Positions 7,284-29,568 of a stretch of 32,000 nucleotides of DNA are shown here, piece by piece. Location of the stretch: assembly GCA_947169155.1 (NCBI GenBank), contig CAMVON010000004.1, forward strand, positions 81,012-113,011. The letters are read 5' to 3'. Made by a program: the position numbers and the translations under genes. The DNA is from an uncultured Clostridiaceae bacterium. Its GTDB lineage: Bacteria; Bacillota; Clostridia; TANB77; CAG-465. The notes below the pieces were generated by a model. The model saw nothing but the letters and a program-made list of their open reading frames with translations, had not been told where the DNA came from and did no database searches. How positions within the stretch are numbered: position 1 is the first letter of the stretch; each line of letters starts with the position of its first letter.

Positions 7284-7292
7284 AAAATCACC

Positions 7293-7838: not shown

Positions 7839-7973
7839 AGTTTATACCTCCCTTTATATTACTATATTATTTTATCATTAATTATTATCAAATGCAATAT
7901 AATGAAGTAATACAAATGTGTATATTTGAATGAAAACATGTTATTTAGTTTTTTATCTAAATAGACATAAAAT

Positions 7974-8002
7974 TTGACATTAAAATTATTATATAGTATA
8001 AT
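7974..8002 (+). promoter_or_regulatory. consensus sigma-70 promoter for the G5/SLT gene
   Basis: TTGACA (7974-7979), 17-nt spacer, TATAAT (7997-8002). Confidence 0.65.
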
Positions 8003-8035
8003 ATCTGTGTTAAATATTCTTTAGGAGGAATTTTT

Positions 8036-9031: not shown

Positions 9032-9044
9032 AATAATTAATTGA

Positions 9045-9074
9045 GAATAGCTACTAAAATAGCTATTCTTTTTA
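9045..9074 (+). terminator. rho-independent terminator
   Basis: Stem GAATAGCT / AGCTATTC with an 8-nt loop, followed by TTTTT. Confidence 0.7.
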
Positions 9075-9095
9075 TTTCTAAATAAAGGAGAAAAT

Positions 9096-9953: not shown

Positions 9954-9965
9954 GGGGATGAAAAT

Positions 9966-10688: not shown

Positions 10689-10717
10689 CCTCCTTATTTT
10701 TGTAATTAAAATAGTTA

Positions 10718-11305
10718 TTATTCCTCAATTCCTGGAACATGATGAGTCAAACGTTTATAACATTTTCTGCATACTGCTTTATATGAATCATTTCCACCAA
10801 TTAATATATCTGGTCCTGATGTAACAGGAACCCCATTTATCATACGCATATTAACTGTAGCTTTTGCCCCACAATCACAAATTGTTTTAATTTCCTCAAT
10901 TTTATCTGCCATTTCCATTAGTGGAAGTGAACCTTCAAAAAATTTCATTTTAAAATTTGTTCTAAGACCATAGCAAATAACAGGAATATCTAATATATCA
11001 ACAATATCAGTTAGTTGTAGTACTTGTCTTCTTGTTAAAAATTGTGCTTCATCAATTAAAACACAAGCAGGTTTAGGCTCAATACTTTTTACTTCACGGT
11101 AAATGTTAGTATCTCCGTTAAATGTTTTAGCATCAGCTTGTAATCCTATTCTTGTTGTAATTTTTCCTACTTCATATCTGTTATCTATTTCTGCTGTATA
11201 AAGTACTACGTCTTGTCCACGTTCTTTGTAATTATATGCAACTTTAAGCAAATCTATTGTTTTTCCACTACCCATTGCACCAAATCTAAAGTATAATTTT
11301 GCCAT
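10718..11305 (-). CDS. tdk: thymidine kinase
   Basis: The track ORF starts at a TTG inside the SD. ATG at 11305 (MAKLYFRFGAMGSGKT) lies 8 nt after GGAGG. P-loop GAMGSGKT, VLIDEAQF, and C-terminal zinc-ribbon cysteines CDCG...CRKC. Confidence 0.93.
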   Translation of the reverse strand: MAKLYFRFGAMGSGKTIDLLKVAYNYKERGQDVVLYTAEIDNRYEVGKITTRIGLQADAKTFNGDTNIYREVKSIEPKPACVLIDEAQFLTRRQVLQLTDIVDILDIPVICYGLRTNFKMKFFEGSLPLMEMADKIEEIKTICDCGAKATVNMRMINGVPVTSGPDILIGGNDSYKAVCRKCYKRLTHHVPGIEE

Positions 11306-11396
11306 AAAAACAACCTCCAAATTTCACAAAAATTATAGCACAAAGAAACCATTTTGTTAAGTAAAAAATATATGAATATTTATTCACATTTTTTTA

Positions 11397-11425
11397 TTGA
11401 CAACGTATAAATAATTAGATATAAT
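11397..11425 (+). promoter_or_regulatory. perfect consensus sigma-70 promoter of the phosphoesterase pair
   Basis: TTGACA (11397-11402), exactly 17 nt, TATAAT (11420-11425). This leaves an ~80-nt leader before the ATG at 11511. Confidence 0.7.
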
Positions 11426-11510
11426 GAAGTCGGTTGGAGAATGATGATGAGCGCAAATAATTTTTTGGCTTGGTTTTTTAAATTAATATTTAAAAAAGGA
11501 GGGAGTTTAT

Positions 11511-12470
11511 ATGAAAAATTATAGCAAAGTAGTCGAAAAGATGAAAAGTAAGCAGCTCACTCTTAAACAACTCAAATTAACCATGGAGGATATCAACTAT
11601 CTAAGAGACAATGGATACAACGTGAAAGAACAATACGATCCTCGTGTAGAGGACTATGTATATTATATTGTCACATCTGGAGATACTGCATATATAAAAA
11701 TTTCTGATCCTTTAAAACAAGGACAAGAAGTAAAATTAAAACTTCTTGAAATATCCGATCTGCATTGCGGATGTCGAAATTTTGATAAGCAAGGCTTAGA
11801 TAGAACCCTTCAAGAAGCACAGTCAAGAGGAGTAGAGTATGTTCACATTTCAGGAGACTTGATTGACGGATTTGGAGTTTATAGGGGACAAGAGAATAAC
11901 CTTAAACACAATAAAGCAATTGAGCAAATTAATGAACTGATGGCAGTTCTAGAAAAGTACGATTTTTGGTATATAGCCAGCATGGGTAACCATGACCAAT
12001 CATTTTGTATGAAAGGTGGGCTAGATCCAATTAAGTACTTGGAGGCTAAAATGGCAAAAAAAGGTAAAAGATTTACCTACTTAAGCGCCTACGAAGCAAA
12101 TATAATTCATGCAGGAATTGTATTTAGGTTGATCCACTTGTCTGGTGGTGCAGCTAGAGCAGCTTCATATAAAGTTCAAGTGTATCTTTCTAGAGTATTT
12201 GAAAGTAACCTTAATGATGTAGAAATAGGAGGCAAAATATACAACCTACGAAGCATTCAAGCAGGACACTTTCATACATTCTATTCACTATCGATGAGTG
12301 GTATAAGAATAATTATGCCAGGCAATTTCCAACACGATGGTGATCTTGAAAAAAGAATGGGTATTTCTGGAAAAACAGGGGGAATCTTCACTGAACTTAC
12401 TATTATTGGAGACAAAATAGCAAGGGAAAAGATAGAGTTCTTTGATCCTTGGGAAAGGAAGGAGGGATAA
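11511..12470 (+). CDS. calcineurin-like metallophosphoesterase with an ~80-aa N-terminal module; all catalytic motifs intact (copy 1)
   Basis: 319 aa. Motifs SDLH (D83/H85), GDLID (115-119), GNHD (159-162), H209, GHFH (252-255). GGAGGGAG SD. Confidence 0.85.
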   Translation: MKNYSKVVEKMKSKQLTLKQLKLTMEDINYLRDNGYNVKEQYDPRVEDYVYYIVTSGDTAYIKISDPLKQGQEVKLKLLEISDLHCGCRNFDKQGLDRTLQEAQSRGVEYVHISGDLIDGFGVYRGQENNLKHNKAIEQINELMAVLEKYDFWYIASMGNHDQSFCMKGGLDPIKYLEAKMAKKGKRFTYLSAYEANIIHAGIVFRLIHLSGGAARAASYKVQVYLSRVFESNLNDVEIGGKIYNLRSIQAGHFHTFYSLSMSGIRIIMPGNFQHDGDLEKRMGISGKTGGIFTELTIIGDKIAREKIEFFDPWERKEG

Positions 12471-12473
12471 TCT

Positions 12474-13436
12474 ATGAACGAAGATTTTTTAACCTCACAA
12501 AAAGCATCTAATGCTCTTTCAAAAATGCGTGCAACAGCATGTACTTTAGAAGAATTAGAACTTACACAAGAACAGATGGACGAGTTGATAGCAGCAACAG
12601 GAAATATTAACTATAACAACAGGAATAAGACGTACTATATAACAAAGTTTAACGAGAACAATTATGAGATAATTTCTTTCACAAACAGCGAAGAAATTAC
12701 TGAAAGATGGCTAGAAATAAGTGACTTGTACCTTGGTAGTGTTTTCTGTGATATGGAAATGCTTGAATATATTTTAAATCTTGCAAAAGAAGAAGGTATA
12801 ACAAACGTTCATATTGCTGGAGATTTATGCGCAGGACATCCTTCGTATAAAAAACAAGACTTGTATCTTACAGCAAAAACTGCACAAGAGCAAGCTGATA
12901 TTGCTATTGAGCTTTTCTCTAAATTCCCAGAATTTAAATATTACTGTATTAATGGAGAAAGGGATCTATCATTTGAAAAAGGTGATTCTATTAACCCTAT
13001 TGTTTTAGTTCAAAGAGCTTTAAACGAAAAAGGTATAGATTTCCACCACATCAATGAAATGGTAGCAAACTTAGTCATAGACGGTGTAGTTAAGAGAATC
13101 CAGCACGGGACAGGAAGACTAGCATACACAAAGTCATATAAAATCGAGAAAGAAATGTGGCAGCAATTTGAAAATATGAGTGACAATGTCATCATAAAGA
13201 ATCGCAACTACAATATATGCTTTGTTCAATTCGGACATTATCATGTTAACTGTTTACAAAGATTGGGCGGAATAATGATTACATCAACTGCAGGTATGGT
13301 ATTTGATGATAAAGGCGTTTTAAACGAGAATACATCATATCCATCTGCCAAATTCTCTACAGCTGTTATCAAGAATGGTAAAGTTGTAAGATTTGTGACT
13401 GAAAGCATTACCAATCCTAAAAACGTTACCATGTAA
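12474..13436 (+). CDS. paralogous metallophosphoesterase-fold protein with degenerate active site (copy 2, probable pseudo-enzyme)
   Basis: 320 aa, colinear with copy 1. Equivalent positions read SDLY, GDLCA, GERD, H211, GHYH. 3-nt gap after copy 1, with its GGAGGG SD inside copy 1's last codons. Confidence 0.8.
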   Translation: MNEDFLTSQKASNALSKMRATACTLEELELTQEQMDELIAATGNINYNNRNKTYYITKFNENNYEIISFTNSEEITERWLEISDLYLGSVFCDMEMLEYILNLAKEEGITNVHIAGDLCAGHPSYKKQDLYLTAKTAQEQADIAIELFSKFPEFKYYCINGERDLSFEKGDSINPIVLVQRALNEKGIDFHHINEMVANLVIDGVVKRIQHGTGRLAYTKSYKIEKEMWQQFENMSDNVIIKNRNYNICFVQFGHYHVNCLQRLGGIMITSTAGMVFDDKGVLNENTSYPSAKFSTAVIKNGKVVRFVTESITNPKNVTM

Positions 13437-13446
13437 CTATAAAAAA

Positions 13447-13479
13447 AGAGAGTACCAATTATTTGGTATTCTCTTTTTG
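13447..13479. terminator. bidirectional rho-independent terminator between convergent genes
   Basis: Stem AGAGAGTACCAA / TTGGTATTCTCT (one mismatch), TTAT loop, A-run before and T-run after. Confidence 0.75.
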
Positions 13480-13486
13480 TGTTAAA

Positions 13487-14098
13487 TTATTCTTTAGAAA
13501 TTACTTTCCTTTGCCAACTTTTCTTTCCACATTCTGGGCATTTCATATATCTTGTTCTACCAAAATGCATAGACCACAATACACTTGAAAATGTTGGAAC
13601 ATATTTATGATGACAGTTATTACATTCATAGTATCCAGCTGTTTGTTCAATTCTTATTGCAAATGGTATGGCAATTGCAAATTGTGCAAAACCAATAAGT
13701 ATAAGTAATACTCTTAGCCAATCTACCATTTCAATAAATGATGCTACAAATACTAAAGCTAAAAATGTAATTGAAGCACCAAATCCAATAACATATTCTA
13801 GTGCAAGCATTCTTTTTGCTGTTTCTTCTTGCTCTTTTTTCATAGCAAGTATAATTTCATCATATTTTTTATTTGTTTCGTTCATATTAATCATCTCCCC
13901 ATAAAATAATTCATTAATTCCTATACCAAGTATTTCACAAAGTTCTATCATAATAGAAGCATCTGGTAAGCTTTTACCATTTTCCCATTTAGATATTGCT
14001 CTATCTGAAATATTTAGTTTTTCTGCAAGTTCTAGTTGTGTAAGACCAACTTCTTTTCTACGAGTAGCAATAAATCTTCCAATTTTGATTTGATCCAT
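13487..14098 (-). CDS. membrane-tethered XRE-family HTH regulator with C-terminal zinc ribbon
   Basis: ATG at 14098 (MDQIKIGRF...) lies 8 nt after GAAGGAGG; the track start is a TTG in the SD. Cro/C1-type HTH (RKEVGLTQLELAEKLNISDRAISKWENGKSLP), two TM helices, then CNNCHH...CPECGKK. Confidence 0.85.
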   Translation of the reverse strand: MDQIKIGRFIATRRKEVGLTQLELAEKLNISDRAISKWENGKSLPDASIMIELCEILGIGINELFYGEMINMNETNKKYDEIILAMKKEQEETAKRMLALEYVIGFGASITFLALVFVASFIEMVDWLRVLLILIGFAQFAIAIPFAIRIEQTAGYYECNNCHHKYVPTFSSVLWSMHFGRTRYMKCPECGKKSWQRKVISKE

Positions 14099-14191
14099 AA
14101 TATTTTCCTCCTTCAATTATATTTTAATGAATTATTATATAAATTAACACGAACTGTTGGTTGAGTTTCTTCAATTATACCATTTTAAGCC

Positions 14192-14223
14192 AAAAAAAGA
14201 TATATAGAAAAATCTATATATCT
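14192..14223 (-). terminator. rho-independent terminator of the Fic gene
   Basis: Perfect 10-bp stem AGATATATAG / CTATATATCT (14198-14207 / 14214-14223) with a 6-nt loop. The minus-strand T7 run is at 14192-14198. It overlaps the Fic stop codon. Confidence 0.8.
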
Positions 14224-15215
14224 AAATGTGTTTTATAGTATCTTTGGTTTTTACTCTTAGGTTTGTCTGGAATTGTCATCTGGACATATCCATCTCTAAT
14301 AGCACAATTTAAATATTTATTTCTAAGAGTATCTTTATGTTTTATATCCAATTTAAACATTATTTCGTTAGCAGTCATTGGTTCCTCGTCCATGTTATCT
14401 AATAGTCTTTTTACATTGACACTTGCTTCGGTTTTTATCATGTTTGCAACCATATCAAGTTCGTCTAAAGCTTTGTTAATCATATCTAGCATAAATTCCA
14501 CAAACACAGTAGATTCACCATCAACATGAGCTTTAGCTATTGCATCATAATACTCTTTTTGATGTTTTTTTATCTGATTTTCAATAGGTACATATTCAAA
14601 TATATCTCTATAATTGCATAAAATAGCGTTTTGCCAAAATCTAGCTGTACGGCCATTACCATCTTGAAAAGGATGTATAAAAACAAATTCATAGTGAAAA
14701 ATACAAGACATTATAATAGGATTAATATTATTTTTTTCTCTTTTCATCCAATCAAATAAATCTGAAATTAAATATGGTACTTGTTGTGGTGGAGGACAAA
14801 TAAATATACATTTATCTCCAGCAAAAACACCTTCGTTTCCTGTTCTATACTTTCCAGCAAGTGGAACTAAATCCTTTTCTATGATTCCATGAATCTTTAA
14901 TAAATCTTTTTCTGAATATGGTTTTACTTTTGTTAATTGCTCATATGCAAGTTTAATATTTTGAACCTCTTTAATTTCATTGGCAGGACCAACAACTTCT
15001 TTACCATCAATAATATCTCTAACTTGCCCTTTAGAAAGCGTATTTCCTTCTATTGCAAGTGAAGCATGAATTGAAGTTATTTGAGTATTTCTTCTAAGTT
15101 TAGGTTCTTTATCTAATCTAGTATAATGTTTGTATTCTCCAACTTTTTCCATAATTGAAGATAAAGTTTCTAACATTTTATTTGTAATTGTAAATGGTGG
15201 AGTATAATTATCCAT
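14214..15215 (-). CDS. Fic family protein (AMPylase-type) with N-terminal inhibitory helix motif
   Basis: Canonical Fic motif HPFQDGNGRTAR. Upstream inhibitory motif S-LAI-E-G-N, matching (S/T)xxxE(G/N). ATG at 15215 (MDNYTPPF) lies 6 nt after GAGGTG; the track start is the GTG inside the SD. Confidence 0.9.
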   Translation of the reverse strand: MDNYTPPFTITNKMLETLSSIMEKVGEYKHYTRLDKEPKLRRNTQITSIHASLAIEGNTLSKGQVRDIIDGKEVVGPANEIKEVQNIKLAYEQLTKVKPYSEKDLLKIHGIIEKDLVPLAGKYRTGNEGVFAGDKCIFICPPPQQVPYLISDLFDWMKREKNNINPIIMSCIFHYEFVFIHPFQDGNGRTARFWQNAILCNYRDIFEYVPIENQIKKHQKEYYDAIAKAHVDGESTVFVEFMLDMINKALDELDMVANMIKTEASVNVKRLLDNMDEEPMTANEIMFKLDIKHKDTLRNKYLNCAIRDGYVQMTIPDKPKSKNQRYYKTHLDI

Positions 15216-15339
15216 AGTTGTCACCTCACTATTCTAATTATACCATGCTTAAAGATAAAATACAATATCTTACCTATATCTTACCTAAAACATACATAAA
15301 CAAAATGTTACAATTGTAGAATAAAGTAAAAAAGAAAAT

Positions 15340-15367
15340 AAAAAAAAGACGACTATTTCTAGTCGTC
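15340..15367 (-). terminator. rho-independent terminator of the tRNA operon
   Basis: Stem GACGACTA / TAGTCGTC within 15348-15367, followed on the minus strand by a T8 run (15340-15347). Confidence 0.8.
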
Positions 15368-15382
15368 AAACCATTGTTTAGA

Positions 15383-15458
15383 TGGAGCTGAAACTCAGAT
15401 TCGAACTGAGGACCTACGGTTTACAAGACCGTTGCTCTACCAACTGAGCTATTCCAGC
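15383..15458 (-). tRNA. tRNA-Thr (anticodon UGU), CCA encoded
   Basis: Reverse complement GCTGGAATAGCTCAGTTGGTAGAGCAACGGTCTTGTAAACCGTAGGTCCTCAGTTCGAATCTGAGTTTCAGCTCCA folds as a 76-nt cloverleaf with anticodon loop CTTGTAA. Confidence 0.95.
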
Positions 15459-15472
15459 ATATATACTTTTTA

Positions 15473-15547
15473 TGGTGACCCGTAGGAGAGTCGAACTCCT
15501 CACTCCGCCGTGAAAGGGCGATGTCTTAACCGATTGACCAACGGGCC
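15473..15547 (-). tRNA. tRNA-Glu (anticodon UUC), CCA encoded
   Basis: Reverse complement GGCCCGTTGGTCAATCGGTTAAGACATCGCCCTTTCACGGCGGAGTGAGGAGTTCGACTCTCCTACGGGTCACCA. 75 nt, anticodon loop CTTTCAC, acceptor stem pairs with one G-U. Confidence 0.95.
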
Positions 15548-15553
15548 CCATGA

Positions 15554-15629
15554 TGGTGAGCCATCGCAGATTCGAACTGCGGACAACTTGATTAAAAGTC
15601 AAGTGCTCTGCCAACTGAGCTAATGGCCC
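15554..15629 (-). tRNA. tRNA-Lys (anticodon UUU), CCA encoded
   Basis: Reverse complement GGGCCATTAGCTCAGTTGGCAGAGCACTTGACTTTTAATCAAGTTGTCCGCAGTTCGAATCTGCGATGGCTCACCA. 76 nt, anticodon loop CTTTTAA. Confidence 0.95.
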
Positions 15630-15672
15630 ATCAAAGTATATAGCAATCAGTTTTACAACTGACTGCGCATAT

Positions 15673-15701
15673 ATAATACTACAATTTGAGCCTCTTGTCA
15701 A
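15673..15701 (-). promoter_or_regulatory. near-consensus sigma-70 promoter of the tRNA operon
   Basis: On the minus strand: TTGACA (15701-15696), 17-nt spacer, TATTAT (15678-15673), about 45 nt upstream of tRNA-Lys. Confidence 0.7.
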
Positions 15702-16067
15702 TAGATTTTATTTAAAAAAACGAAAAAAATTGAAATTTGCAAAATGATTCTTAAATTCTACAAATAATTATTTCCAAAAGTTCTAGTTTTAAAACATATT
15801 AACAAAAGTATTGCAAGCCAAAAGCAAGGGTGCTACTATATTTTCGTGATTCAAATATTATTCACTCTAATTATTTTTTATCTAAATATTTCAATCAAAA
15901 TTTTTTATCTTTTATTTAAATTCTTAAACGCATTATCATATAATCTTAATTTATTTTTTAGTGAGGAAGGAAAAATAGAGTAACATTAATAGGTGCGTTT
16001 GCAACTTTGTTTTAGCTATATGATTTAAAATATTTGAATCACATTACTATATATAAGGAGGAGGTAT

Positions 16068-16409
16068 ATGAAATTAAATAAAATATTGTGCATAATGTGT
16101 ATAACCATGTGCCTTTTTATAACGTCATGTGTTTTTGCGGCAAACAATAATACTACAACAGGATCCACTCCTAGTTTAGTAACTAAAATTAATTCTGCAT
16201 TTACTAGAATTCAAAGCTACCTTAAAAAGATTTCAACTCCAATTGCAGGTGTATGTATAGCTAGTGGAATTATAATTAGGAAATTAAGTTTTGGTGATGA
16301 AAAGAAGATGATTACTGGAAAAAGGATAATAACTAATTCTGTGGTAGGTTATGCAGCAATTCAAATGTTAGACTTAATAATTAAATTTATAGAAGCAGTA
16401 ATTAAATAA
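16068..16409 (+). CDS. small secreted or membrane protein with VirB2/TrbC-pilin-like architecture
   Basis: 113 aa. Signal peptide ending VFA/A, then two hydrophobic helices (ISTPIAGVCIASGIII; IITNSVVGYAAIQMLDLII) separated by a basic loop (RKLSFGDEKKMITGKR). AAGGAGGAGG SD. The call is from architecture only. Confidence 0.45.
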   Translation: MKLNKILCIMCITMCLFITSCVFAANNNTTTGSTPSLVTKINSAFTRIQSYLKKISTPIAGVCIASGIIIRKLSFGDEKKMITGKRIITNSVVGYAAIQMLDLIIKFIEAVIK

Positions 16410-16410
16410 T

Positions 16411-17205
16411 ATGGATGAATATGTAAAAAATTTAAACGAAGTTTTAAATAGATTAAGTATATCACTTAGAAGTACGGTATATGATTTAATAGATAAAATA
16501 GCTACCATAGATAACACTATGTTTGAAAAAGAACCATTAAAAACTATATGTTCAACAAATCTTATATTTATAGTTCTAACTATAATATGGGCTATTATAA
16601 TTGCTATTTCATTTAAATACGTCTTAAATCTATATAGTAATCTAGCTATAAATAGAATTTATTTTTATATCTTAAAATGCGTTATTGTAGGTATAATAAG
16701 CTTAAATAGTTATAGCATTTGTAAAGAAATTATTAGTTTTAATGCTGATTTTACCAAACTATTAGAATTATCTTTAGAAGAGACAATAGATTCAAAAATT
16801 GAATATAAATTTATAGATGATAACATAGATTCAATAAATGACTTAATATCTTCAAAAGATAAACTAAGTTTAAATGGAGTAAAAGATGGTATAGTTTGCT
16901 TTTATATGATATCCCTTTTAATACTATTATCTCTAAGATATGTAATAGTAATATCATGCATAATTATCTCACCAATAATGTGTATATTATTACTTGTGCC
17001 AAAGCTAAATAATTATTTTTATACATATATAAAGGTATTCATATACAATTTATTACTTCAAAATATAAACATATTTATACTATATATTCCAATATCATCA
17101 AAAAATGAAAAGAGTATTTTCTTACCTATTATAATAGGTAGTGTTATACTTATATATAATGTAAATAAAAAAGCAGGAAGTATTATTTATGAGAAAAAGG
17201 ATTAA
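16411..17205 (+). CDS. polytopic membrane protein, VirB6/PrgH-like by architecture and position
   Basis: 264 aa with at least 5 predicted TM helices. Its ATG is 1 nt after the stop of the previous gene. Extremely AT-rich coding sequence. Family assignment is tentative. Confidence 0.35.
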   Translation: MDEYVKNLNEVLNRLSISLRSTVYDLIDKIATIDNTMFEKEPLKTICSTNLIFIVLTIIWAIIIAISFKYVLNLYSNLAINRIYFYILKCVIVGIISLNSYSICKEIISFNADFTKLLELSLEETIDSKIEYKFIDDNIDSINDLISSKDKLSLNGVKDGIVCFYMISLLILLSLRYVIVISCIIISPIMCILLLVPKLNNYFYTYIKVFIYNLLLQNINIFILYIPISSKNEKSIFLPIIIGSVILIYNVNKKAGSIIYEKKD

Positions 17206-17545
17206 TAAACAGCAAATCTTTAGCTTCTATAATAAAGTTCATAAATGGCATGGCTTAATAGATTACAAATCTTTAAGTGCTATAGTTGCGTACATATTTA
17301 TAACAAGCTATTTAGTGCTTAATTTAAATATTACAAATACGCTAAAGTTATATGTAATTATCATATTAGTTTTACCAGTGATTATCTTTACTCTTTTAAA
17401 TATTAATGAAGATTCAGTACTTGAAAAATTGGTTACAATTATAAAGTATATTTTTACAAAAAGGGTGTATACTAAAACGCTAGAATTCAAAGAAAAAGCA
17501 ACTATATATAAAAAGAATGCAGAAAATAGTCGTATTGAAAAATAG
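17189..17545 (+). CDS. PrgI/VirB3-like small membrane protein
   Basis: 118 aa. N-terminal Y-NK....GL..YKSL segment followed by two adjacent TM helices and a basic ...IFTKRVY tail, resembling PrgI-family proteins as I remember them. 17-nt overlap with the upstream gene. Confidence 0.45.
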   Translation: MRKRINKQQIFSFYNKVHKWHGLIDYKSLSAIVAYIFITSYLVLNLNITNTLKLYVIIILVLPVIIFTLLNINEDSVLEKLVTIIKYIFTKRVYTKTLEFKEKATIYKKNAENSRIEK

Positions 17546-17590
17546 TAGAATTAGTGATATAATGACATCCAATCAAGAAGGAGTATATAT

Positions 17591-18562
17591 ATGAAATTTG
17601 ATAGCCAAAAGAAAAAGTTAGAACTAGGCGATACACTTGTTCCAGATCTATTCATATTAAACAATATGAAAGCTCTTGGAAAAAACGATATGCATGTGTA
17701 TCTATACCTATTATATTTACTAAAGAATAATGTAGAAATAGATTCAGAGTTACTAATGAAAAATTTGGAGCTTAGTGCAGATGAACTTAAAATAAGTCTA
17801 GATGTACTTACAGCAGAAGGATTGATTCAAAAAACAACAAGAAGTGCTGTAGTAATAGATTTAAAAGAAGCAGAAATAAACAAACAATATACTCCTAAAT
17901 TTGATAGTAAAGTTAGCAGATATGAAAATGTAATAGATGAAAAAAGAAAAGCATGTGTTGATGCTATTTGTGAAAGTTTCTTTAATGGATATATGTCATT
18001 TAGTTGGCATACTGATATAGGAAATCTATTTAATATGTATGGATTTGCAGAAGAAGTAATGATAGCCCTATTTCAATATTGTCAAGAACGTAAAGCACTA
18101 AACAGAAAATATCTATTTGCTGTAGCTGAAACTTGGCATAATGGTGGAGTACATACTTTTGAAGAACTTGAAGCATTCTTAGATAACTATGAAAAGTTTA
18201 ATAAGATTAAGCAAAGAATATGCAAAGCTTTAGGTATTGTTGGAAGAAGCCTTTCAAAATATGAAGAAGAATTTGTAAAAAAATGGATTGAAGAATATAA
18301 CTATGATTTTGATATTATAGAAGAAGGATTAAAAAGAAGTACATCTACAACTAATCCAACTATAAAGTACATTGATGCAATAATATCAAGTTGGTATAAA
18401 AAAGGATACAAAACAGTAGATGAAATACTTGAGGCAGAAAGTCCAAAAACTATTGAAGATAAACCAATAAGAAAAATCCCATCTGCTATAGCTAAAAAGA
18501 AAAGTTATCAAAATTATACACAAAGAGATTATGATGATTATAACGAATTCTATGATGAATAA
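17591..18562 (+). CDS. DnaD-domain replication initiation / helicase-loading protein (Bacillus DnaB/DnaD-type)
   Basis: 323 aa. N-terminal wHTH-like region and two DnaD-type C-terminal repeats (FAVAETWHNGGVHTFEELEAF; IDAIISSWYKKGYKTVDEILE). GAAGGAG SD. Confidence 0.8.
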   Translation: MKFDSQKKKLELGDTLVPDLFILNNMKALGKNDMHVYLYLLYLLKNNVEIDSELLMKNLELSADELKISLDVLTAEGLIQKTTRSAVVIDLKEAEINKQYTPKFDSKVSRYENVIDEKRKACVDAICESFFNGYMSFSWHTDIGNLFNMYGFAEEVMIALFQYCQERKALNRKYLFAVAETWHNGGVHTFEELEAFLDNYEKFNKIKQRICKALGIVGRSLSKYEEEFVKKWIEEYNYDFDIIEEGLKRSTSTTNPTIKYIDAIISSWYKKGYKTVDEILEAESPKTIEDKPIRKIPSAIAKKKSYQNYTQRDYDDYNEFYDE

Positions 18563-18579
18563 TTGAGAGGAGTGGTTAT

Positions 18580-19587
18580 ATGCAAAGCGAAGCGTATAGA
18601 AAAATTGAAGCAGAGTACGATTACAAAAGACAACAAGCACAAAAAGATGCAAAAATGTTTAAAGAAAACGTATACGACGAACACCCACAACTTGCTCAAA
18701 TAGAAGCAGATATAGCAAAAGTTGCAATTGAATCTATGAAAGCTAGAATTAATTCAGACGACAGTAAAAGAGCAAAAGAACAAGAAAAGCTAGAAGAAAG
18801 AATAGAAGAACTTCAAGAAGAATATGATAAAGTTTTAAAAAGAATAGGTATGACACTTGAAGATTTTGAGCCAAAATATGAATGTGAAAAATGCAAAGAT
18901 ACAGGAATGTATAAAAATGCTATGTGCAGCTGCTTTAAACAAGCATTAATTAATGAATCATTCAAACAATCAAATATGCTTAAAATTAAAGATGAAAATT
19001 TTGAAACTTTTGATTTTGGATACTATTCATCTAATCCAGATAAAGAAAAATATGGAATAGATAAGTCCCCACTTGAAAAAATGGATGCAATTAGAAAACA
19101 AGCCTATGAGTTTTCTCATAGTCTAGATAATCCAGAGCAAAAAAATCTACTATTTAGTGGAACAACAGGACTTGGAAAAACATTCCTTGCTAACTGCATT
19201 GCAAATGAAGCAATAAAACAAGGAAAATCTGTTATATATCAAACAGCTCCAATTCTTCTAGATAAAATGGTAGATTATCAATTCAAATATAATAAAACAG
19301 AAGGTGACAGAGAAGAATATCAAAAAATATTTGAAGTAGACCTACTTATCATAGATGACTTGGGAACTGAAACAATGAATGCTGCAAAATTTAGTGAGCT
19401 ATTTAATATAATTAATACTAGACTTTTAAAAGGTAAAAAGATGGTTATATCTACAAATCTAACAACACAAGAAATTAAAAATCTATATGAAGAAAGAATA
19501 TTTTCTAGACTTGTAGGAGATTTTTCAATATTAAGATTTATAGGTGAAGATATTAGAGTGTTAAAAAAGAAAATAAATAAAGCATAA
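18580..19587 (+). CDS. AAA+ helicase loader, DnaC/DnaI-type
   Basis: 335 aa. Cys cluster CEKCKDTGMYKNAMCSC, Walker A GTTGLGKT, Walker B LLIIDDLGTE. Directly follows the DnaD-domain gene. Confidence 0.88.
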   Translation: MQSEAYRKIEAEYDYKRQQAQKDAKMFKENVYDEHPQLAQIEADIAKVAIESMKARINSDDSKRAKEQEKLEERIEELQEEYDKVLKRIGMTLEDFEPKYECEKCKDTGMYKNAMCSCFKQALINESFKQSNMLKIKDENFETFDFGYYSSNPDKEKYGIDKSPLEKMDAIRKQAYEFSHSLDNPEQKNLLFSGTTGLGKTFLANCIANEAIKQGKSVIYQTAPILLDKMVDYQFKYNKTEGDREEYQKIFEVDLLIIDDLGTETMNAAKFSELFNIINTRLLKGKKMVISTNLTTQEIKNLYEERIFSRLVGDFSILRFIGEDIRVLKKKINKA

Positions 19588-19592
19588 AAGAA

Positions 19593-19619
19593 AGAGTACC
19601 ACATAAGGTACTCTTTTTT
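19593..19619. terminator. bidirectional terminator between convergent genes
   Basis: Stem AGAGTACC / GGTACTCT (19593-19600 / 19607-19614) with A-run upstream and T-run downstream. Confidence 0.75.
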
Positions 19620-20535
19620 ATCCATTAAATTCTTCTCTTTTTCTTTCAATTTTAAGTAATTGTTCATATAGTTTTTCTTCTCTTTCAGAAATATCTTCTG
19701 GAAGATCAATATGAACTTTAAGATTTAAATCTCCACGATTTCCATCTTCAGTAACATATCCTTTATTTGGTACTGTTACTATTTCGCCATCTCTTAGACG
19801 TTTTGGAAGAGAAACAAATAGTTTTTCATCCATTACTTGAAGCTTGTACTTTCCACCAAGAGCAGCTACTGCTGGAGTTATATTTATATCTTTGTTAAAA
19901 TCTGTTCCCTCAATTTTAAATTCAGGGTCATCCAATAATTTAACATGTATAATTAAATCTCCATTTTTACCGCCATTTTTTCCTGGGTTTCCAAGTGCAG
20001 CAAGTCTAATCTTATCTCCGTTTTTTATTCCAACAGGAACTTTAACAGAGAAAGTCTTCATGCCAGTTTTATGTGCACGTATTGCAATTTTCTTTTCAGC
20101 CCCAAAGAAACCTTCTTCAAGTGTTACATCTAAATGAGTAACTATATCTGTACCTTTAATAGGTTTTTTCTTATCATCTATATTTTCATTATTCGAATTA
20201 TTGTCGCCTTTTCTAAATCCTAAAATTTGGTTTAGTATGTCATTAAATACATTTGCACCAGATTTGAATTCGTATTTTACATCTTGTAGTCCTGATTCAA
20301 TATTTGCAAAACCATAACCATATCTTGCAACTTGTCTATCGTATTTTCTTTTTTTCTCAGGATCCATAAGGATCGCATAAGCTTCATTTATATCTTTAAA
20401 CTTTTCTTCAGCATCTTTGCTTTTATTTTTATCCGGATGATACTCTTTAGCAAGTCTTCTAAAGTTAAGTTTTATATCTTGATCAGAACTTTTTCTGTTG
20501 ACTTCCAATATTGCGTAATAGTTTTTTTGTTTCAT
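19618..20535 (-). CDS. DnaJ-class co-chaperone lacking the zinc-finger domain (CbpA-like)
   Basis: 305 aa. J domain NYYAILEVNRKSSDQDIKLNFRRLAKEYHPDKNK and DnaJ C-terminal beta-domains. No CxxCxGxG repeats. Confidence 0.85.
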   Translation of the reverse strand: MKQKNYYAILEVNRKSSDQDIKLNFRRLAKEYHPDKNKSKDAEEKFKDINEAYAILMDPEKKRKYDRQVARYGYGFANIESGLQDVKYEFKSGANVFNDILNQILGFRKGDNNSNNENIDDKKKPIKGTDIVTHLDVTLEEGFFGAEKKIAIRAHKTGMKTFSVKVPVGIKNGDKIRLAALGNPGKNGGKNGDLIIHVKLLDDPEFKIEGTDFNKDINITPAVAALGGKYKLQVMDEKLFVSLPKRLRDGEIVTVPNKGYVTEDGNRGDLNLKVHIDLPEDISEREEKLYEQLLKIERKREEFNG

Positions 20536-24492: not shown

Positions 24493-24519
24493 CATAATTT
24501 GTGATATAATAATTATGTA

Positions 24520-24843
24520 GTATTTCAGATGATTGCTTGCCTTTATGGCCAGAGGAAAGTCCGGACACTATAGAGCAGGGTGCTAGATAACGTCTAGTGG
24601 GAGTGATCCTAAGGAAAGTGCAACAGAAAATTACCGCTACTTTTGTAGTAAGGGTGAAAACGCGAGGTAAGAGCTCACGACAATCTATGGAGACACAGAT
24701 TGGGTGTAAACCCCACCTAGTGCAACACCAGAATGAAACGATATTAGGTTGCTCGCCAAGTTTCAAGTTGGTGGCTTGAGATGCATAGTAATATGCATTC
24801 TAGATAAATAATCATCTAATACAGAATCCGGCTTACGAAATGC
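24520..24843 (+). ncRNA. rnpB: RNase P RNA, type-A-like, compact (~324 nt)
   Basis: Universal P4 strands GAGGAAAGTCCGG (5') and ACAGAATCCGGCTTA (3'). Blocks CAGGGTGCTAGATAACGTCTAG, GTAAGGGTGAAAACGCGAGGTAAGAGCTCAC and GTGTAAACCCCACC parallel E. coli M1 RNA. P1 and P2 pairing of the ends (GTATTTC/GAAATGC; AGATGATT/AATCATCT). Extended -10 TGATATAAT at 24502-24510. Ends are approximate, within a few nt. Confidence 0.92.
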
Positions 24844-24859
24844 TCATATTTTATTTTTT

Positions 24860-24888
24860 AAAAGTCCTTTTGGGGCTTTTATTTTTTT
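24860..24888 (+). terminator. rho-independent terminator after rnpB
   Basis: 8-bp stem AAAAGTCC / GGGCTTTT (one G-U) with a 5-nt loop, then ATTTTTTT. Confidence 0.65.
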
Positions 24889-24934: not shown

Positions 24935-24963
24935 TTGACAATTATTTTATTTTAATATAAAAT
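24935..24963 (+). promoter_or_regulatory. sigma-70 promoter of the CofE-like/T4CP operon
   Basis: TTGACA (24935-24940), 17-nt spacer, TAAAAT (24958-24963). Confidence 0.6.
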
Positions 24964-24999
24964 TTAAATAGTTAAATTCACAAGATTGGAGGTATTATT

Positions 25000-25698
25000 A
25001 TGGAGTTTAAAGCTTTAGAAGGAAAAAATGTAGAAATACAAGTAGGAGACAACAAATACATGAGACATGCAATTGAGACTCACTACATTCAACTTGGTGA
25101 AAGTTATATTGACATTGTTAAACAATATGTTTCTCCTATTTACGAAGAGGGAGATATTGTATCGTTTAGTGAAAAAATAATTTCTTTATGCCAAAAGAAT
25201 ATTGTATATAAAAAGGACGTAAAAGTATCCGGTCTTGCTAAGTTCTTATCTAAATTTGCTATGAGAACAGATGCAGGTATCGGTGTAGATAGTCCATATA
25301 AAATGCAATTTGCTATAGATATTAATGGACCTTGGAAAGTTTTATGGGCTGCTATTGCAGGAGGATTTTGCAAAATATTTGGAAAACATGGTGTTTTCTA
25401 TGAAATCGTAGGTAAAGAAGTTAGTGGACTTGATGGATTCTATGGAGATGTATTCTCAGATTATTCAGAATTTGGTATCAAAATTCCACAAAACCCAAAT
25501 GGAGTATGTAATGAAATATATGAAAAAACTGGAGTTAAATCTATGATTGTTGACGCAAATGACTTTAACCAAGAAATACTAGGTAAAGCAGACGCAATTA
25601 CTGAAAGCGAAGAAGAACTTATTGGTATGATCAAAGATAACCCTTGTGGTCAAGCTAAAACATTAACACCAATGGTATTAATTAGAAAAGTTAAATAG
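25000..25698 (+). CDS. CofE-like (F420-0:gamma-glutamyl ligase fold) family protein, function unknown here
   Basis: 232 aa. EGDIVSFSEKIISLCQ, IVDANDF and a C-terminal GQAKTLTPMVLIR resemble the CofE family as I remember it. GGAGG SD. The product call is tentative. Confidence 0.4.
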   Translation: MEFKALEGKNVEIQVGDNKYMRHAIETHYIQLGESYIDIVKQYVSPIYEEGDIVSFSEKIISLCQKNIVYKKDVKVSGLAKFLSKFAMRTDAGIGVDSPYKMQFAIDINGPWKVLWAAIAGGFCKIFGKHGVFYEIVGKEVSGLDGFYGDVFSDYSEFGIKIPQNPNGVCNEIYEKTGVKSMIVDANDFNQEILGKADAITESEEELIGMIKDNPCGQAKTLTPMVLIRKVK

Positions 25699-25724
25699 AT
25701 ATAATTTAGAAGAGGGGTTGAATT

Positions 25725-26294
25725 ATGGATAGTTTATTTAAAATGAACAAGTTTGAGGTTATTGACTTGCCAGGTATGAACACATTAGCTTTTTTAGTTG
25801 AAAGAGATTATGATGCATATTCTCAAGGTTATGCATATTTGTCTCTAGAAAAGTTAAGAAGTGTTGAGGTAAGAGAAGAAAACCAAGTAAAAAAAGTATT
25901 TAACGTGCTTGTAGATGACCCAGAAGATGAAGACGATATAGTTCTTCTAACACTTACAGATAGCAAAGCATTCTTAAGTACAGGAATTTTAGACAAAAAT
26001 GGATTCACAGTAGAAAATAGTAATGTTTCTTTAACATATGGCTCAATATATAACACTGAAGGAATTGAATATAGAGACGTTGCTTATACACCAGACTTAA
26101 GAAGAAACTTCTCAATTATTGATTCTCAAACAGGAGAAGAGGTAAAACCTTCTCTTTACAGAGACGATAATGGTGAGGTCAGAGGTAGATGCAAAATTAT
26201 GCCTAATAGACCATACATAGTATTAGAAGTATCAATGGATGATGAAGATATAAAAAAATTAAAGCTTGACGAAGAAGCAGATGAAATGATTTAG
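25725..26294 (+). CDS. hypothetical acidic protein (189 aa)
   Basis: ORF track entry, GAGGGG SD, 26-nt gap after the previous gene. No family recognised. Confidence 0.65.
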   Translation: MDSLFKMNKFEVIDLPGMNTLAFLVERDYDAYSQGYAYLSLEKLRSVEVREENQVKKVFNVLVDDPEDEDDIVLLTLTDSKAFLSTGILDKNGFTVENSNVSLTYGSIYNTEGIEYRDVAYTPDLRRNFSIIDSQTGEEVKPSLYRDDNGEVRGRCKIMPNRPYIVLEVSMDDEDIKKLKLDEEADEMI

Positions 26295-26305
26295 GAGGTA
26301 TAATA

Positions 26306-26488
26306 ATGAGTAAAAAAAGCATTCACGATAAAATTAAAGTAGATATGGTTGAAGGACTTATTACTGAAAAAGGTGAATTTATTCCAGAAAAAGGAATAAG
26401 TGTAAAAAATAAAGAGGTAAGAAATCTTTCTCCAGAACAAATCAAGAAGGCCAAAGAAAGAGGAGAATACGACGAAAGAGAAAGATAA
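26306..26488 (+). CDS. hypothetical small charged protein (60 aa)
   Basis: Strong SD TAGGAGG 7 nt before the ATG, 11-nt gap upstream and 20-nt gap downstream within a same-strand operon. No family recognised. Confidence 0.55.
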   Translation: MSKKSIHDKIKVDMVEGLITEKGEFIPEKGISVKNKEVRNLSPEQIKKAKERGEYDERER

Positions 26489-26508
26489 TATAAAAAGGAG
26501 TATATGAA

Positions 26509-28617
26509 ATGAGAGATTTTTTCGAAGATTTAAAACAAAAAGCTCCATTACTATTAATTGTATCGCTTATATTATCTATCGTTCTAGGTGGAGCAATATG
26601 TAAATCTGTTGCCGATGCAAAAGCAGCAGGTGATACAAAACTTCTTGCTGCTGTTATAACTAATTCTTTTGGAAACATTACTAATTTTTCATTTTTCTCA
26701 GGTATTTTTGCAGAGTTTGTATTATTCCTAAAAATAACAGGAGTAATAATTGTTATAGCATTTGCAATGTATGCATATGCTAAGTACAAAGCCAGTCAAA
26801 AAGGTGAATATGAAGGAAAAGAAAATGGTTCCAGCCAATGGGGAAAAGGAGCTGAAGATTATAAACATGCATCTGATGGTAAAGAAATTTTAAACAGAAA
26901 AGAAGGATTTATCCTAAGTAAAACACATTATTTAGGAACAGACTTAAGAAAAGTTGGTATCAACAAAAACATACTTGTTGTCGGTGGATCTGGTTCTGGT
27001 AAAACAGCATGTTATATCAAACCTAATATAATGCAATGTTTAGGATCATATATTATAACTGACCCTAAAGGAGAATTATATAAAGAAACATCACAATTTT
27101 TAAAATCTGAAGGATATGATGTTAAAGCATTTAACCTTGTAAATCCAACATATAGTGATTTCTATAACCCAATATACAATATTTGTTCAGACCAAGACGT
27201 AGATACATTAGCTCACATCTTAGTAACAGGAGCAAATAAAGAAGGTGGCGGCGGAGATGACCCATTCTGGGATAACACTGCAAAAATGTTAATTTCTGCT
27301 ACTATCTACTATGTTTTATCTGTTCTACCATTAGAGCAACAAAACATAGGAAGCTGTCTAAATATCATTCGTCAAGGTGGTGCAGATAGCTCAATATTTG
27401 AAAAATTATTTATAGATGATTTAATGCCAGAACATCCTGGTAGAATTCAATATGAATCATTTAAAACTGCTGCAGACAAAACAATGCAATCAATAGTAAT
27501 TTCATCTATTTCTAAAATGCGTGTTTTTGATATGCCAGCAATTCAAAGAATTACATCATCTAATAGTATTAACTTTAGAGATGTCGCAAAAAAGAAAACA
27601 GTTATATATGTTATTACATCAGCTGCTGAAAGTACATATGATTTCGTATCAACAATGTTCTTTAGCCAAATGTTCTCAATACTATATAAACAAGCAGATG
27701 ATTATGGCTCAAGATTACCAAATCAAGTATATTTCTTACTAGATGAGTTTGCAAATATTGGTCAAATACCAGACTTCCAAAAGAAGTTATCTACAACTCG
27801 TAGTTTAGGTATTTCTATCTCAATTATTGTACAATCACTAGACCAATTAGAAGCATTATATAAAGACTCATATGAAAATATTCTTGGTAACTGTGATACT
27901 CAATTATTACTTGGTACTAACTCACAAAAAACAGCTGAGTACTTTTCAAAATCTTTAGGACAAACAACAATTAAGATTGAACAAAAATCTATAAATAAAG
28001 ATAAAGATGAAAACAAAAAACAAGGTGTATCTATTAGTACACAAAGACAAGCAAGAGATCTTATGACTGTTGATGAAATTAGACGTATGGATAATAACAA
28101 AGAAATTCTTATGGTTAGAGGTCTAAAACCAATTATGGCAGAAAAAGCTTGGTACTTTAAAGTTCATCCAAAAAGAGATATTATTGAATCTATGAAACTT
28201 GGAAGTATTAAAGACATGCCAATACCAGAAGAACTTCCATATTCATATTTTGATGTTCAAAAATATTTACAAGACAGAAAAAGACGTGCTCAAGAAATTC
28301 TTAAAAACAGATCAAAAGATGTTCAAGTGGATACAGGATTCTCATCTGCAACTCAAGATAAAAGCAGACCATATGGTAGCGTAGATAAAAATAGAGAAGC
28401 AGAAATTGATACAAGACCACTTGCAAATGGAATGGATTCAAATTCATATAATGATTTATATGAAAACAATGACTATAATCCAATTACTGATGCTCAAACA
28501 AGCGAAAGCAAAGCACCAAATGAAATAACTCAAGAAGATTATGATTTACAATCTGAACTTGAATCTAAATTTGATAAACTATTCGGTTCAAGCAGCTCTG
28601 CTGTTAATGACGATTAA
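26509..28617 (+). CDS. type IV secretion coupling protein, VirD4/TraG family ATPase
   Basis: 702 aa. Two N-terminal TM helices, Walker A GGSGSGKT (159-166) followed by YIKPNIMQ...ITDPKGELY, then LLDEFANIG and RSLGISISIIVQSLDQLEALY, all hallmarks of TraG/VirD4. Acidic, low-complexity C-terminal tail. AAGGAG SD 8 nt upstream. Confidence 0.9.
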   Translation: MRDFFEDLKQKAPLLLIVSLILSIVLGGAICKSVADAKAAGDTKLLAAVITNSFGNITNFSFFSGIFAEFVLFLKITGVIIVIAFAMYAYAKYKASQKGEYEGKENGSSQWGKGAEDYKHASDGKEILNRKEGFILSKTHYLGTDLRKVGINKNILVVGGSGSGKTACYIKPNIMQCLGSYIITDPKGELYKETSQFLKSEGYDVKAFNLVNPTYSDFYNPIYNICSDQDVDTLAHILVTGANKEGGGGDDPFWDNTAKMLISATIYYVLSVLPLEQQNIGSCLNIIRQGGADSSIFEKLFIDDLMPEHPGRIQYESFKTAADKTMQSIVISSISKMRVFDMPAIQRITSSNSINFRDVAKKKTVIYVITSAAESTYDFVSTMFFSQMFSILYKQADDYGSRLPNQVYFLLDEFANIGQIPDFQKKLSTTRSLGISISIIVQSLDQLEALYKDSYENILGNCDTQLLLGTNSQKTAEYFSKSLGQTTIKIEQKSINKDKDENKKQGVSISTQRQARDLMTVDEIRRMDNNKEILMVRGLKPIMAEKAWYFKVHPKRDIIESMKLGSIKDMPIPEELPYSYFDVQKYLQDRKRRAQEILKNRSKDVQVDTGFSSATQDKSRPYGSVDKNREAEIDTRPLANGMDSNSYNDLYENNDYNPITDAQTSESKAPNEITQEDYDLQSELESKFDKLFGSSSSAVNDD

Positions 28618-28626
28618 TAAACAAAA

Positions 28627-28652
28627 AAGGCTCTCAAAAAGAGTCTTTTTTT
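28627..28652 (+). terminator. rho-independent terminator of the T4CP operon
   Basis: Stem AGGCTCT / AGAGTCT (one G-U) with loop CAAAA, followed by T7. Confidence 0.7.
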
Positions 28653-28728
28653 ATGTCCATTTTAACCAGTTTTTTACTTGAAAAACATTATTATATATAG
28701 TATAATCTAGATATATGTGGAGGGGTAT

Positions 28729-29461: not shown

Positions 29462-29469
29462 ATCACTAT

Positions 29470-29546
29470 GCCAAGCGATAGAGTACTGTGAACCTTGTCA
29501 GGTCCGGAAGGAAGCAGCAATAAGCAATATACTCTATGTGCCTGGC
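29470..29546 (+). ncRNA. ffs: signal recognition particle RNA, minimal 4.5S-like hairpin (~77 nt)
   Basis: Conserved domain IV sequence GTCAGGTCCGGAAGGAAGCAGC. Terminal helix GCCAAGCGATAGAGTA / TACTCTATGTGCCTGGC, followed by T7. Located immediately upstream of dnaX, the classic ffs-dnaX-ybaB-recR order. Ends are approximate. Confidence 0.85.
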
Positions 29547-29568
29547 TTTTTTTGTTATAGGAGGGAAT

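Follow-up and report, generated by a model that had tools for sequence, protein, structure and literature searches.

A window of 32,000 nucleotides (nt) from the genome of an uncultured Clostridiaceae bacterium of the order TANB77 was found to encode a VirD4/TraG-type type IV coupling protein (T4CP) that belongs to the core genome of its order and stays together with two partner genes. These encode an acidic protein of 189 amino acids (aa), p189, and a small charged protein, p60. We hold it to be somewhat more probable than otherwise that this p189-p60-T4CP module is a core operon captured from a Firmicute conjugation system and that the T4CP recruits substrate for a chromosomal type IV secretion system (T4SS) which has no relaxase. 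An earlier reading of the window from its letters alone (the sequence-only reading) had described an orphan coupling ATPase, domesticated in the core genome and co-transcribed with a CofE-like gene and two genes for small proteins. The domestication is well supported by the present analysis; the four-gene operon as a functional unit is not.

The comparison covered the 40 nearest genomes and the window's own, together 41 genomes of one order, five families, and 11 genera, with sizes of 0.9 to 2.1 Mb. According to their records, the relatives are uncultured Clostridia from gut and rumen, among them Clostridium sp. CAG:465, CAG:921, and CAG:1219. Furthermore, 84 related loci were fetched and read directly, and comparisons of T4CP motifs and tails refer to 83 chromosomal loci. 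A class-wide sample comprised 300 Clostridia genomes, 11 from the order of the window and 289 others.

The coupling protein and its two partners

The 702-aa protein is predicted, unambiguously, to be a complete VirD4-type coupling protein. It scored 432.5 bits against the NCBIfam model NF045973 ("VirD4-like conjugal transfer protein, CD1115 family"; cut-off, 250) and 284.8 bits against PF02534 (T4SS-DNA_transf; cut-off, 20.1; E = 1.7e-84). Matches to TraG-D_C and to TrwB_AAD_bind (PF10412) reached 132 bits and, over residues 152-538, 106 bits. Two N-terminal transmembrane helices (hydrophobic segments at residues 8-37 and 62-92) precede a nucleotide-binding domain with an all-alpha domain; the protein then continues through a variable linker of low complexity into a conserved helix at the C terminus. 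Every motif quoted as a T4CP hallmark by the sequence-only reading was present, as was the transmembrane pair. The Walker A motif is intact, its residues G159, G160, G162, and K165 being conserved across the order, and D412 and E413 of the Walker B motif are invariant.

Following the variable linker, all 83 chromosomal T4CPs end in [YF]D[LIV]Q.ELE.KF[DN][EK][LI]F[GN] and a few further residues. This clade-specific motif, in short form YDLQxELExKFDxLFG, is predicted to be an amphipathic helix and is a candidate docking peptide. It was not found elsewhere in the genome of the window. The best T4CP matches among 72,556 plasmids showed 34-39% identity and aligned over residues 55-598 only.

The T4CP was detected in 40 of the 41 genomes, with 54-85% identity within the genus and approximately 39-49% in other families. 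The gene for p189 was found in the same number of genomes, across all five families and always just upstream of the T4CP gene. In the class-wide sample, p189 occurred in the 11 genomes of this order and in none of the 289 others. The synteny comparison that the sequence-only reading had proposed placed the module between rnpB and ffs-dnaX in about 50 species, in the order dnaJ-like (minus strand), gyrA, (AI-2E), rnpB, CofE-like, p189, small open reading frame (ORF), T4CP, p234, ffs, dnaX, ybaB, recR; the CofE-like gene was not constant. In other families, the module lies between a J-protein gene and SbcD/SbcC-like genes, or beside spoIVA. Since the flanks change and the p189 gene, the small ORF, and the T4CP gene stay together, we regard these three genes as the conserved unit.

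All four genes of the locus are under purifying selection. In comparison with one relative of 93.7% nucleotide identity, ratios of nonsynonymous to synonymous substitution rates (dN/dS) of 0.025, 0.059, 0.076, and 0.124 were obtained for p189, the CofE-like gene, p60, and the T4CP, respectively; the values for gyrA and dnaX were 0.025 and 0.052. At syntenic loci, the identity of the T4CP (approximately 50-59%) is near that of DnaX (53-65%). Both the GC content and the codon use of the locus match those of the host. A maximum-likelihood tree was built from the 83 chromosomal T4CPs, six plasmid T4CPs, and the T4CP of an integrative and conjugative element (ICE) that is present elsewhere in the same genome. 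The chromosomal proteins follow taxonomy, each of the five families being monophyletic with strong support, and the plasmid proteins form a single clade set apart by a branch of length 2.18. A single origin of the chromosomal T4CPs is compatible with this tree and is not proven by it, because family f3 and the plasmid clade are not firmly placed with respect to each other. The presence in nearly all genomes, the fixed position, the phylogeny, the selection, and the composition together bear out the claim of a domesticated T4CP embedded in the core genome. The locus does not lie in an ICE or prophage, the T4CP operon is not strain specific with mobile flanks, and the ATPase motifs are not degenerate.

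Among the partners, p189 is a soluble, all-beta protein whose AlphaFold2 model (predicted local distance difference test score [pLDDT], 84; predicted template modeling score, 0.80) contains 14 strands and a C-terminal helix. It matched no Pfam or NCBIfam family, and its profile retrieved nothing from the PDB sequences. Foldseek found no meaningful neighbor of the fold in PDB or BFVD, where matches amounted to generic two-sandwich, Ig-like noise with template modeling (TM) scores of 0.3 or less. No homologue was found on the 72,556 plasmids or in a phage collection. The possibility that p189 is a diverged PcfB/DUF3801 protein was rejected (hhalign probability, 0.4%; no Pfam match).

A profile search of 1.84 billion representatives returned 123 relatives of p189. 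Some are stand-alone proteins; in others, of approximately 800-1,000 aa, the domain forms the middle part of a TIR-X-Sel1 or Ser/Thr-kinase-X-Sel1 arrangement, and one such embedded domain aligned with an hhalign probability of 95.7% over 169 columns. In the metagenomic proteins P0220, P0232, P0211, P0226, P0238, and P0203, the beta-domain is preceded by a TIR or Ser/Thr kinase domain at the N terminus and followed by Sel1 repeats at the C terminus; some of these proteins have the Sel1 repeats only. None of the TIR- or kinase-Sel1 proteins with the p189-like domain contains a tail motif like that of the T4CP. This embedding suggests that p189 is a binding or sensor module. As judged from the profile matches, its beta-domain is an undescribed domain common to signaling or conflict-type proteins.

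The second partner, p60, is conserved in position and evolves fast in sequence. In nearly all loci, a small ORF of 41-123 aa (166-202 aa in family f3) occupies its slot. Because a sequence search gave a single weak match among the 40 relatives, counterparts were assigned from ORF position. Most modules in the family of the window bear an acidic stretch that ends in two or three hydrophobic residues (GEDDMII, EEDEPII, QDGMIV). It is located on the small ORF when p189 has about 173 aa and on p189 itself when the latter has 189-193 aa. Six loci (L088, L090-L093, and L097) encode the small ORF and p189 as one fusion protein of 211-218 aa that ends, for example, in DDDLIV. Such fusions, seen in some genera, speak for a joint action of p189 and the small protein.

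The sequence-only reading had offered the small acidic proteins as substrates, chaperones, or adaptors. A role as substrates is unlikely: p189 is as constrained as gyrA, so that an adaptor or subunit describes it better than cargo does. The acidic-hydrophobic C terminus was also considered as a marker of client proteins. Besides p189, it was present in two of 2,463 ORFs, and the lead was dropped. A 576-aa acidic protein was rejected as a client, as it belongs to no family and its homologues do not retain the tail.

Some related loci show peculiarities in the T4CP gene. An extreme form of the linker was seen at L016 (genome G031), where the T4CP ORF has 1,036 aa and some 640 residues separate Walker B from the conserved tail motif. 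Throughout family f3 (L023, L024, and L026), the P-loop reads GGAGSRKS, with arginine replacing the glycine before the catalytic lysine. Reading the T4CP requires a +1 shift inside the P-loop in 22 of the 83 related loci, at a site homologous to window positions 26983-26991 (L022, L025, L027, L051, L054, L060-L062, L064, L065, L070-L073, L076, L079, L080, L087, and L096 are among them). The shift site is GGA CGG N TCN GG in these loci; the window has GGT GGA TCT. This state flips repeatedly along the T4CP tree, and CGG is nearly unused in the genome of the window (5 of 322,849 codons in long ORFs). The GGA-CGG-N arrangement is suggestive of recoding, or of throttling, at an unassigned codon and not of decay.

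The CofE-like gene and the surroundings of the module

All four ORFs were located exactly where the sequence-only reading had placed them, separated by gaps of 26, 11, and 20 nt (Table 1). The first gene owed its CofE-like label to a marginal Pfam match: it scored 25.7 bits against PF01996 (cut-off, 25.0), covering residues 25-85 only, that is, 61 residues of a 218-position model. TIGR04132 gave 29 bits against a cut-off of 350, and PDB sequences gave nothing with either the single sequence or a profile. The label is borne out by the fold. Searching with an AlphaFold2 model of medium confidence (pLDDT, 66), the top five Foldseek matches were all Archaeoglobus fulgidus CofE (2G9I, 2PHN, and 7ULD), with a probability of 1.0, TM scores of 0.37-0.40, and full-length alignment; the next match had an E value of 0.5. 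The likeness to CofE thus consists of these sole significant fold matches and the marginal PF01996 score, and it is a very distant one.

The gene was present in 24 of the 41 genomes, comprising its own genus and one copy at another site. It is limited to part of one family and absent from the other four families that have the module, so that no link to the T4CP module is seen outside one family. Five syntenic loci are without it, and in many species a VanW-like gene intervenes between it and the p189 gene. Where present, it shows 71-90% identity, compared with approximately 50-82% for its neighbors (outside the near-identical locus L034). In the genome of the window, it is probably co-transcribed with the module. 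As its distribution is uncoupled from that of the module, we consider it an independent enzyme gene that shares the promoter in a sub-clade.

The sequence-only reading had bracketed the four genes by one promoter and one terminator. The promoter matches the sigma-70 consensus at 11 of 12 positions; since the promoter scan as a whole was not enriched over shuffled sequence, it counts as a consensus match only. The terminator, read by eye, combines a 6-bp stem (GGCTCT/AGAGTC), an A/T extension, and a run of seven T residues. It is plausible from sequence and was not called by the terminator scan, which reported no hairpin at about positions 28624-28652.

The flanks were found as described, with RNase P RNA (263 bits) upstream and signal recognition particle (SRP) RNA (68 bits), followed by dnaX, ybaB, and recR, downstream. 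A gene between the T4CP gene and ffs had been overlooked. Its product, p234, has one transmembrane segment (residues 5-36) and matched no Pfam or NCBIfam profile. It is held downstream of the T4CP throughout the family and evolves fast, with 29-56% identity among syntenic loci when the near-identical L034 is set aside and 31% identity to its homologue in genome G001. It is at most a candidate member of the T4CP module.

The remaining genes of the window are housekeeping genes: mutL, miaA, dut, ksgA, dnaD/dnaI-like genes, a J-protein gene, and gyrA. Neither integrase, relaxase, VirB4, nor transposase genes nor repeats were found within the 32,000 nt, and the earlier statement that no relaxase, VirB4, or integrase lies nearby holds for the window. 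The J-protein, encoded 5 kb from the module on the opposite strand, is CbpA-like, with DnaJ and DnaJ_C domains and no zinc finger. In families f2 and f5 (loci L014, L015, L018, L020, L022, and L025), the gene of such a J-protein directly precedes that of p189. Elsewhere in the window, a gene for an XRE-type helix-turn-helix protein with a zinc-ribbon-like C-terminal region adjoins one for a Fic/DOC-family protein, alongside a tRNA cluster.

Table 1. Positions of the module and of other features in the window
Feature	Position	Strand	Remarks
XRE-type helix-turn-helix protein and Fic/DOC-family protein	13487-15224	-
tRNA cluster	15386-15629
VirB2-like (113 aa), polytopic VirB6-like (264 aa), and PrgI/VirB3-like (118 aa) trio	16068-17545	+	9 kb upstream of the module, before dnaD/dnaI-like genes
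CbpA-like J-protein	19618-20535	-
RNase P RNA, class A	24517-24850	+	Upstream flank
rnpB terminator	24859-24881		Precedes the sigma-70-like promoter
Sigma-70-like promoter, TTGACA-17-TAAAAT	24935-24963	+	Upstream of the CofE-like gene
CofE-like protein, 232 aa	25000-25698	+	Distant member of the F420-0:gamma-glutamyl ligase fold
p189, 189 aa	25725-26294	+	Acidic (pI 4.3); all-beta with C-terminal helix; acidic tail ending DEEADEMI
p60, 60 aa	26306-26488	+	Charged (pI 9.0)
T4CP, 702 aa	26509-28617	+	VirD4/TraG type, CD1115 family
Walker A (P-loop), GGSGSGKT	26983-27006	+	G159-GSGSGK-T166
Walker B, LLDEFAN	27736-27756	+
C-terminal tail motif, YDLQSELESKFDKLFG	28540-28587	+	Predicted amphipathic helix; candidate docking peptide
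Probable intrinsic terminator, GGCTCT-CAAAA-AGAGTC	28624-28652	+	Read by eye
Promoter of p234	28678-28706
p234, 234 aa	28717-29421	+	Single-pass membrane protein, between T4CP and ffs
SRP RNA	29467-29552	+	Downstream flank

Type IV secretion genes and possible modes of action

The T4CP had been called an orphan. This is correct at the locus and does not apply to the genome, which contains four further sets of T4SS-like genes. Outside the window, contig C2 (positions 34728-51000) harbors a long cluster on one strand with four VirB2/TrbC-like pilins, PrgI, a 668-aa VirB4, two VirB6-like paralogues, and a 1,256-aa protein. TrbC scored 34.4 bits (cut-off, 27.9) and PrgI 33.2 bits (cut-off, 27), and the VirB4 matched P-loop_TraG, AAA_10, and DUF87. 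This VirB4 was matched in 39 of the 41 genomes; outside the family, the cluster-type orthologue shows 63-68% identity and is thereby better conserved than the T4CP. By these matches, the cluster is a chromosomal pilus-type T4SS without relaxase that has been conserved vertically. In a 2025 review, Patescibacteria are named as the sole exception to the absence of VirB2 pilins from Gram-positive T4SSs.

Two smaller sets lie on the contig of the window. Some 20 kb before the window begins (C4, positions 58876-62701), the gene of a second VirB4-like ATPase (positions 59268-60935; 555 aa; P-loop_TraG and AAA_10) is accompanied by that of a ParA/MinD-like ATPase and by two others of unknown kind. 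Many relatives encode proteins that are close to this ATPase in size and likewise weakly similar to the C2 VirB4; these may be its orthologues. Within the window, the trio listed in Table 1 gave sub-threshold matches to TrbC, T4SS_pilin, and PrgI. Its middle, 264-aa protein was found in 38 of the 41 genomes and diverges fast (43% identity in the nearest species). In the two families in which its gene and that of the T4CP are on one contig, they lie approximately 10-25 kb apart. The trio may represent a dispersed part of the T4SS.

The fourth set is a complete ICE on contig C3 (positions 600-20000, outside the window). Its genes, assigned by sequence reading with the exception of the relaxase, encode ArdA-like and ParB-like proteins, MobC, a relaxase, a T4CP, a pilin-like protein, a VirB6-like protein, PrgI, and VirB4, as well as an M23 peptidase, an MT-A70 methylase, a sortase, and a Cna-B-type adhesin. 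The T4CP of this element is 27-30% identical to that of the window, and near-identical pairs of ICE T4CP and relaxase were found in genomes G009, G012, G028, and G037. Relaxases were screened across the 41 genomes as one family, PF03432. They were present in 12 genomes and, where positions could be compared, mostly adjoined second, ICE-type T4CPs. A tblastn search of the genome of the window with the ICE relaxase retrieved only the relaxase itself.

We hypothesize that an ancestor of the order captured the module from a Firmicute conjugation system and that it has since been inherited vertically. The T4CP would be a membrane-anchored ATPase with two transmembrane helices and intact Walker A and B motifs, assumed to form a hexamer as solved T4CPs do, with the lineage-specific amphipathic helix carried on a flexible linker. 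By analogy with TraM on TraD, TrwA on TrwB, and IcmS/W and DotM/N on DotL, p189 and the small protein would form an adaptor complex bound to the tail or the nucleotide-binding domain, the tail helix being the most plausible site. The complex would recruit cargo, more likely protein than relaxase-bound DNA, to the chromosomal relaxase-less, pilin-bearing T4SS. That p189 and p60 bind the T4CP, that the T4CP is coupled to the T4SS, and what kind of cargo is carried are in this scheme inferred from known systems. The CofE-like gene would be a separate, highly conserved enzyme gene that came to share the promoter by chance in part of one family.

Several observations weigh against T4SS coupling. 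The T4CP never adjoins the large T4SS cluster, the G-to-R change in the P-loop of family f3 is odd for an obligatory ATPase, and a relaxase unlike the PF03432 family covered by our screen could exist. Genome G036 keeps the VirB4 of the T4SS, yet it shows neither T4CP nor p189. This absence may be an assembly gap, because the sbcD-like neighbor gene is missing there too, and for that reason G036 could not be used as a natural knockout retaining the T4SS without the module. In the Patescibacterium Southlakia epibionticum, the T4CP was reported to be non-essential and dispensable for epibiotic growth, whereas other T4SS genes were essential (PMC12102498); a T4SS-independent role therefore stays a serious rival. 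Under this alternative, which we judge unlikely overall, the T4CP, p189, and p60 alone would constitute a membrane translocase or segregation ATPase, pumping DNA in sporulation or division, taking up or releasing DNA, or exporting peptides or proteins. T4CPs are related to the FtsK/SpoIIIE DNA pumps, and a stand-alone motor would fit a T4CP that is never found beside VirB4 or VirB6 genes and that sits among replication genes, or next to J-protein and SbcD/SbcC-like genes in other families. G036 would fit too if its lack of the module were real. However, module and T4SS are both near-universal in the order, T4SS-like membrane genes lie within approximately 10-25 kb of the T4CP in the two families mentioned above, and no VirD4-family protein is known to work without a channel.

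The T4SS coupling that we favor must also be weighed against a host-encoded conjugation helper, in which T4CP and T4SS would move the chromosome or mobilizable elements lacking a T4CP of their own, an unrecognized relaxase would nick the DNA, and p189 and p60 would be relaxosome accessories. The T4CP does belong to a conjugative family, its partners occupy the slot that PcfB and a small ORF hold on plasmids, and the acidic-hydrophobic tails of p189 and the small ORF loosely recall docking tails of DNA-processing proteins. We nevertheless regard this explanation as improbable: PF03432 relaxases are patchy and mostly accompany ICE-type T4CPs, the tblastn search revealed no second relaxase of the ICE type, p189 has no plasmid homologue, and no oriT-like repeat was noted at the locus. 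A smaller chance still is given to a functional operon of all four genes. The CofE-like ligase would then modify p189, p60, or the T4CP tail, for instance by adding glutamates to an acidic C terminus, or would make a small-molecule cargo. The 26-nt gap and single promoter in this genome, the supported CofE fold, the place of the gene beside the module in about a dozen species, its nearest kin, and the acidic C-terminal tails of the module could be accounted for in this manner. The distribution of the gene, absent from most module-bearing families and separated by the VanW-like gene in many species, speaks against it, as does its conservation, which far exceeds that of its neighbors, as expected of an independent housekeeping enzyme. 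Least probable of all is a decaying remnant of an integrated conjugative element or plasmid. Although the closest named family is conjugative and a real ICE is present elsewhere in the genome, the ORF and its motifs are intact, dN/dS values range from 0.02 to 0.12, the module occurs order-wide at fixed positions with host-like composition and codon use, and the window is free of integrases, transposases, and repeats. Conservation and selection effectively refute this explanation.

Relation to known systems and implications

The architecture of the T4CP is shared with CD1115-family proteins (NF045973) from conjugative plasmids and ICEs of Firmicutes, such as those on plasmids of Enterococcus, Clostridium perfringens, Clostridium botulinum, Brevibacillus, and Paenibacillus. 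Genomic context was inspected for six plasmid T4CPs. In most contexts a gene of approximately 160-350 aa lies directly upstream, in one case with a further small gene. PcfB/DUF3801 is located there in five of the six, whereas the unrelated p189 holds that slot here. Relaxase, VirB6, PrgI, or VirB4 genes are near the plasmid T4CP in most contexts; none of these, nor MobC, lies alongside the T4CP of the window. In contrast to the plasmid proteins, the latter is chromosomal, vertically inherited, and order-wide, and it has an extra linker of approximately 100 aa and the invariant C-terminal helix.

The closest parallel to such a system is offered by Patescibacteria, whose chromosomal T4SSs derive from monoderm conjugation systems, have pilins, mostly lack relaxases, and have the T4CP away from virB4 (Quinonero-Coronel et al. 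2025, PMC12102498, citing Wang et al. 2023). In both cases, a monoderm with a small genome possesses a chromosomal Firmicute-type T4SS with VirB2-like pilins and few relaxases, the T4CP is far from virB4, and T4SS parts are near replication genes. The present system differs in belonging to Clostridia, in its dedicated T4CP partners, and in its signature tail; the likeness is at the family level. Adaptor systems that act on T4CP C-terminal tails have been described for F-plasmid TraD-TraM, R388 TrwB-TrwA, and Legionella DotL with IcmS/W, DotM, and DotN (PMC12857230). The likeness to them consists of a long flexible C-terminal extension ending in a conserved peptide and of small co-encoded acidic candidate adaptors. 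By Pfam, PDB profile, and Foldseek searches, neither p189 nor p60 could be related in sequence or fold to TraM, TrwA, IcmS/W, or DotM/N. Literature searches combining TANB77 or CAG-465 with T4SS returned nothing relevant, and a T4CP module of this lineage was not found described in the searchable literature.

Textbooks treat T4CPs as components of mobile elements or of pathogen effector systems. In this case, an entire order of abundant uncultured gut Clostridia has a core, vertically inherited T4CP with a signature tail and a partner whose predicted fold resembled none in PDB or BFVD. For annotation, this implies that such T4CP genes should not count as evidence of ICEs or plasmids in these metagenome-assembled genomes. 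Handles that can be tested in E. coli or B. subtilis, with no need to culture the organism, are provided by the tail peptide, by p189, and by the small ORF with its tail. Together with the conserved relaxase-less T4SS, the module would extend beyond Patescibacteria the idea that conjugation machinery can become a permanent organelle in small-genome monoderms. We also entertain, as a rather doubtful step further, that the T4CP module and the pilin-bearing T4SS form a core cell-contact organelle of these genome-reduced Clostridia, akin to the T4SS on which Patescibacteria depend for epibiotic growth, in which p189 is a cargo or signal adaptor on the tail helix. If true, this would mean a host-dependent, possibly episymbiotic lifestyle within Clostridia and a new class of T4CP adaptors.

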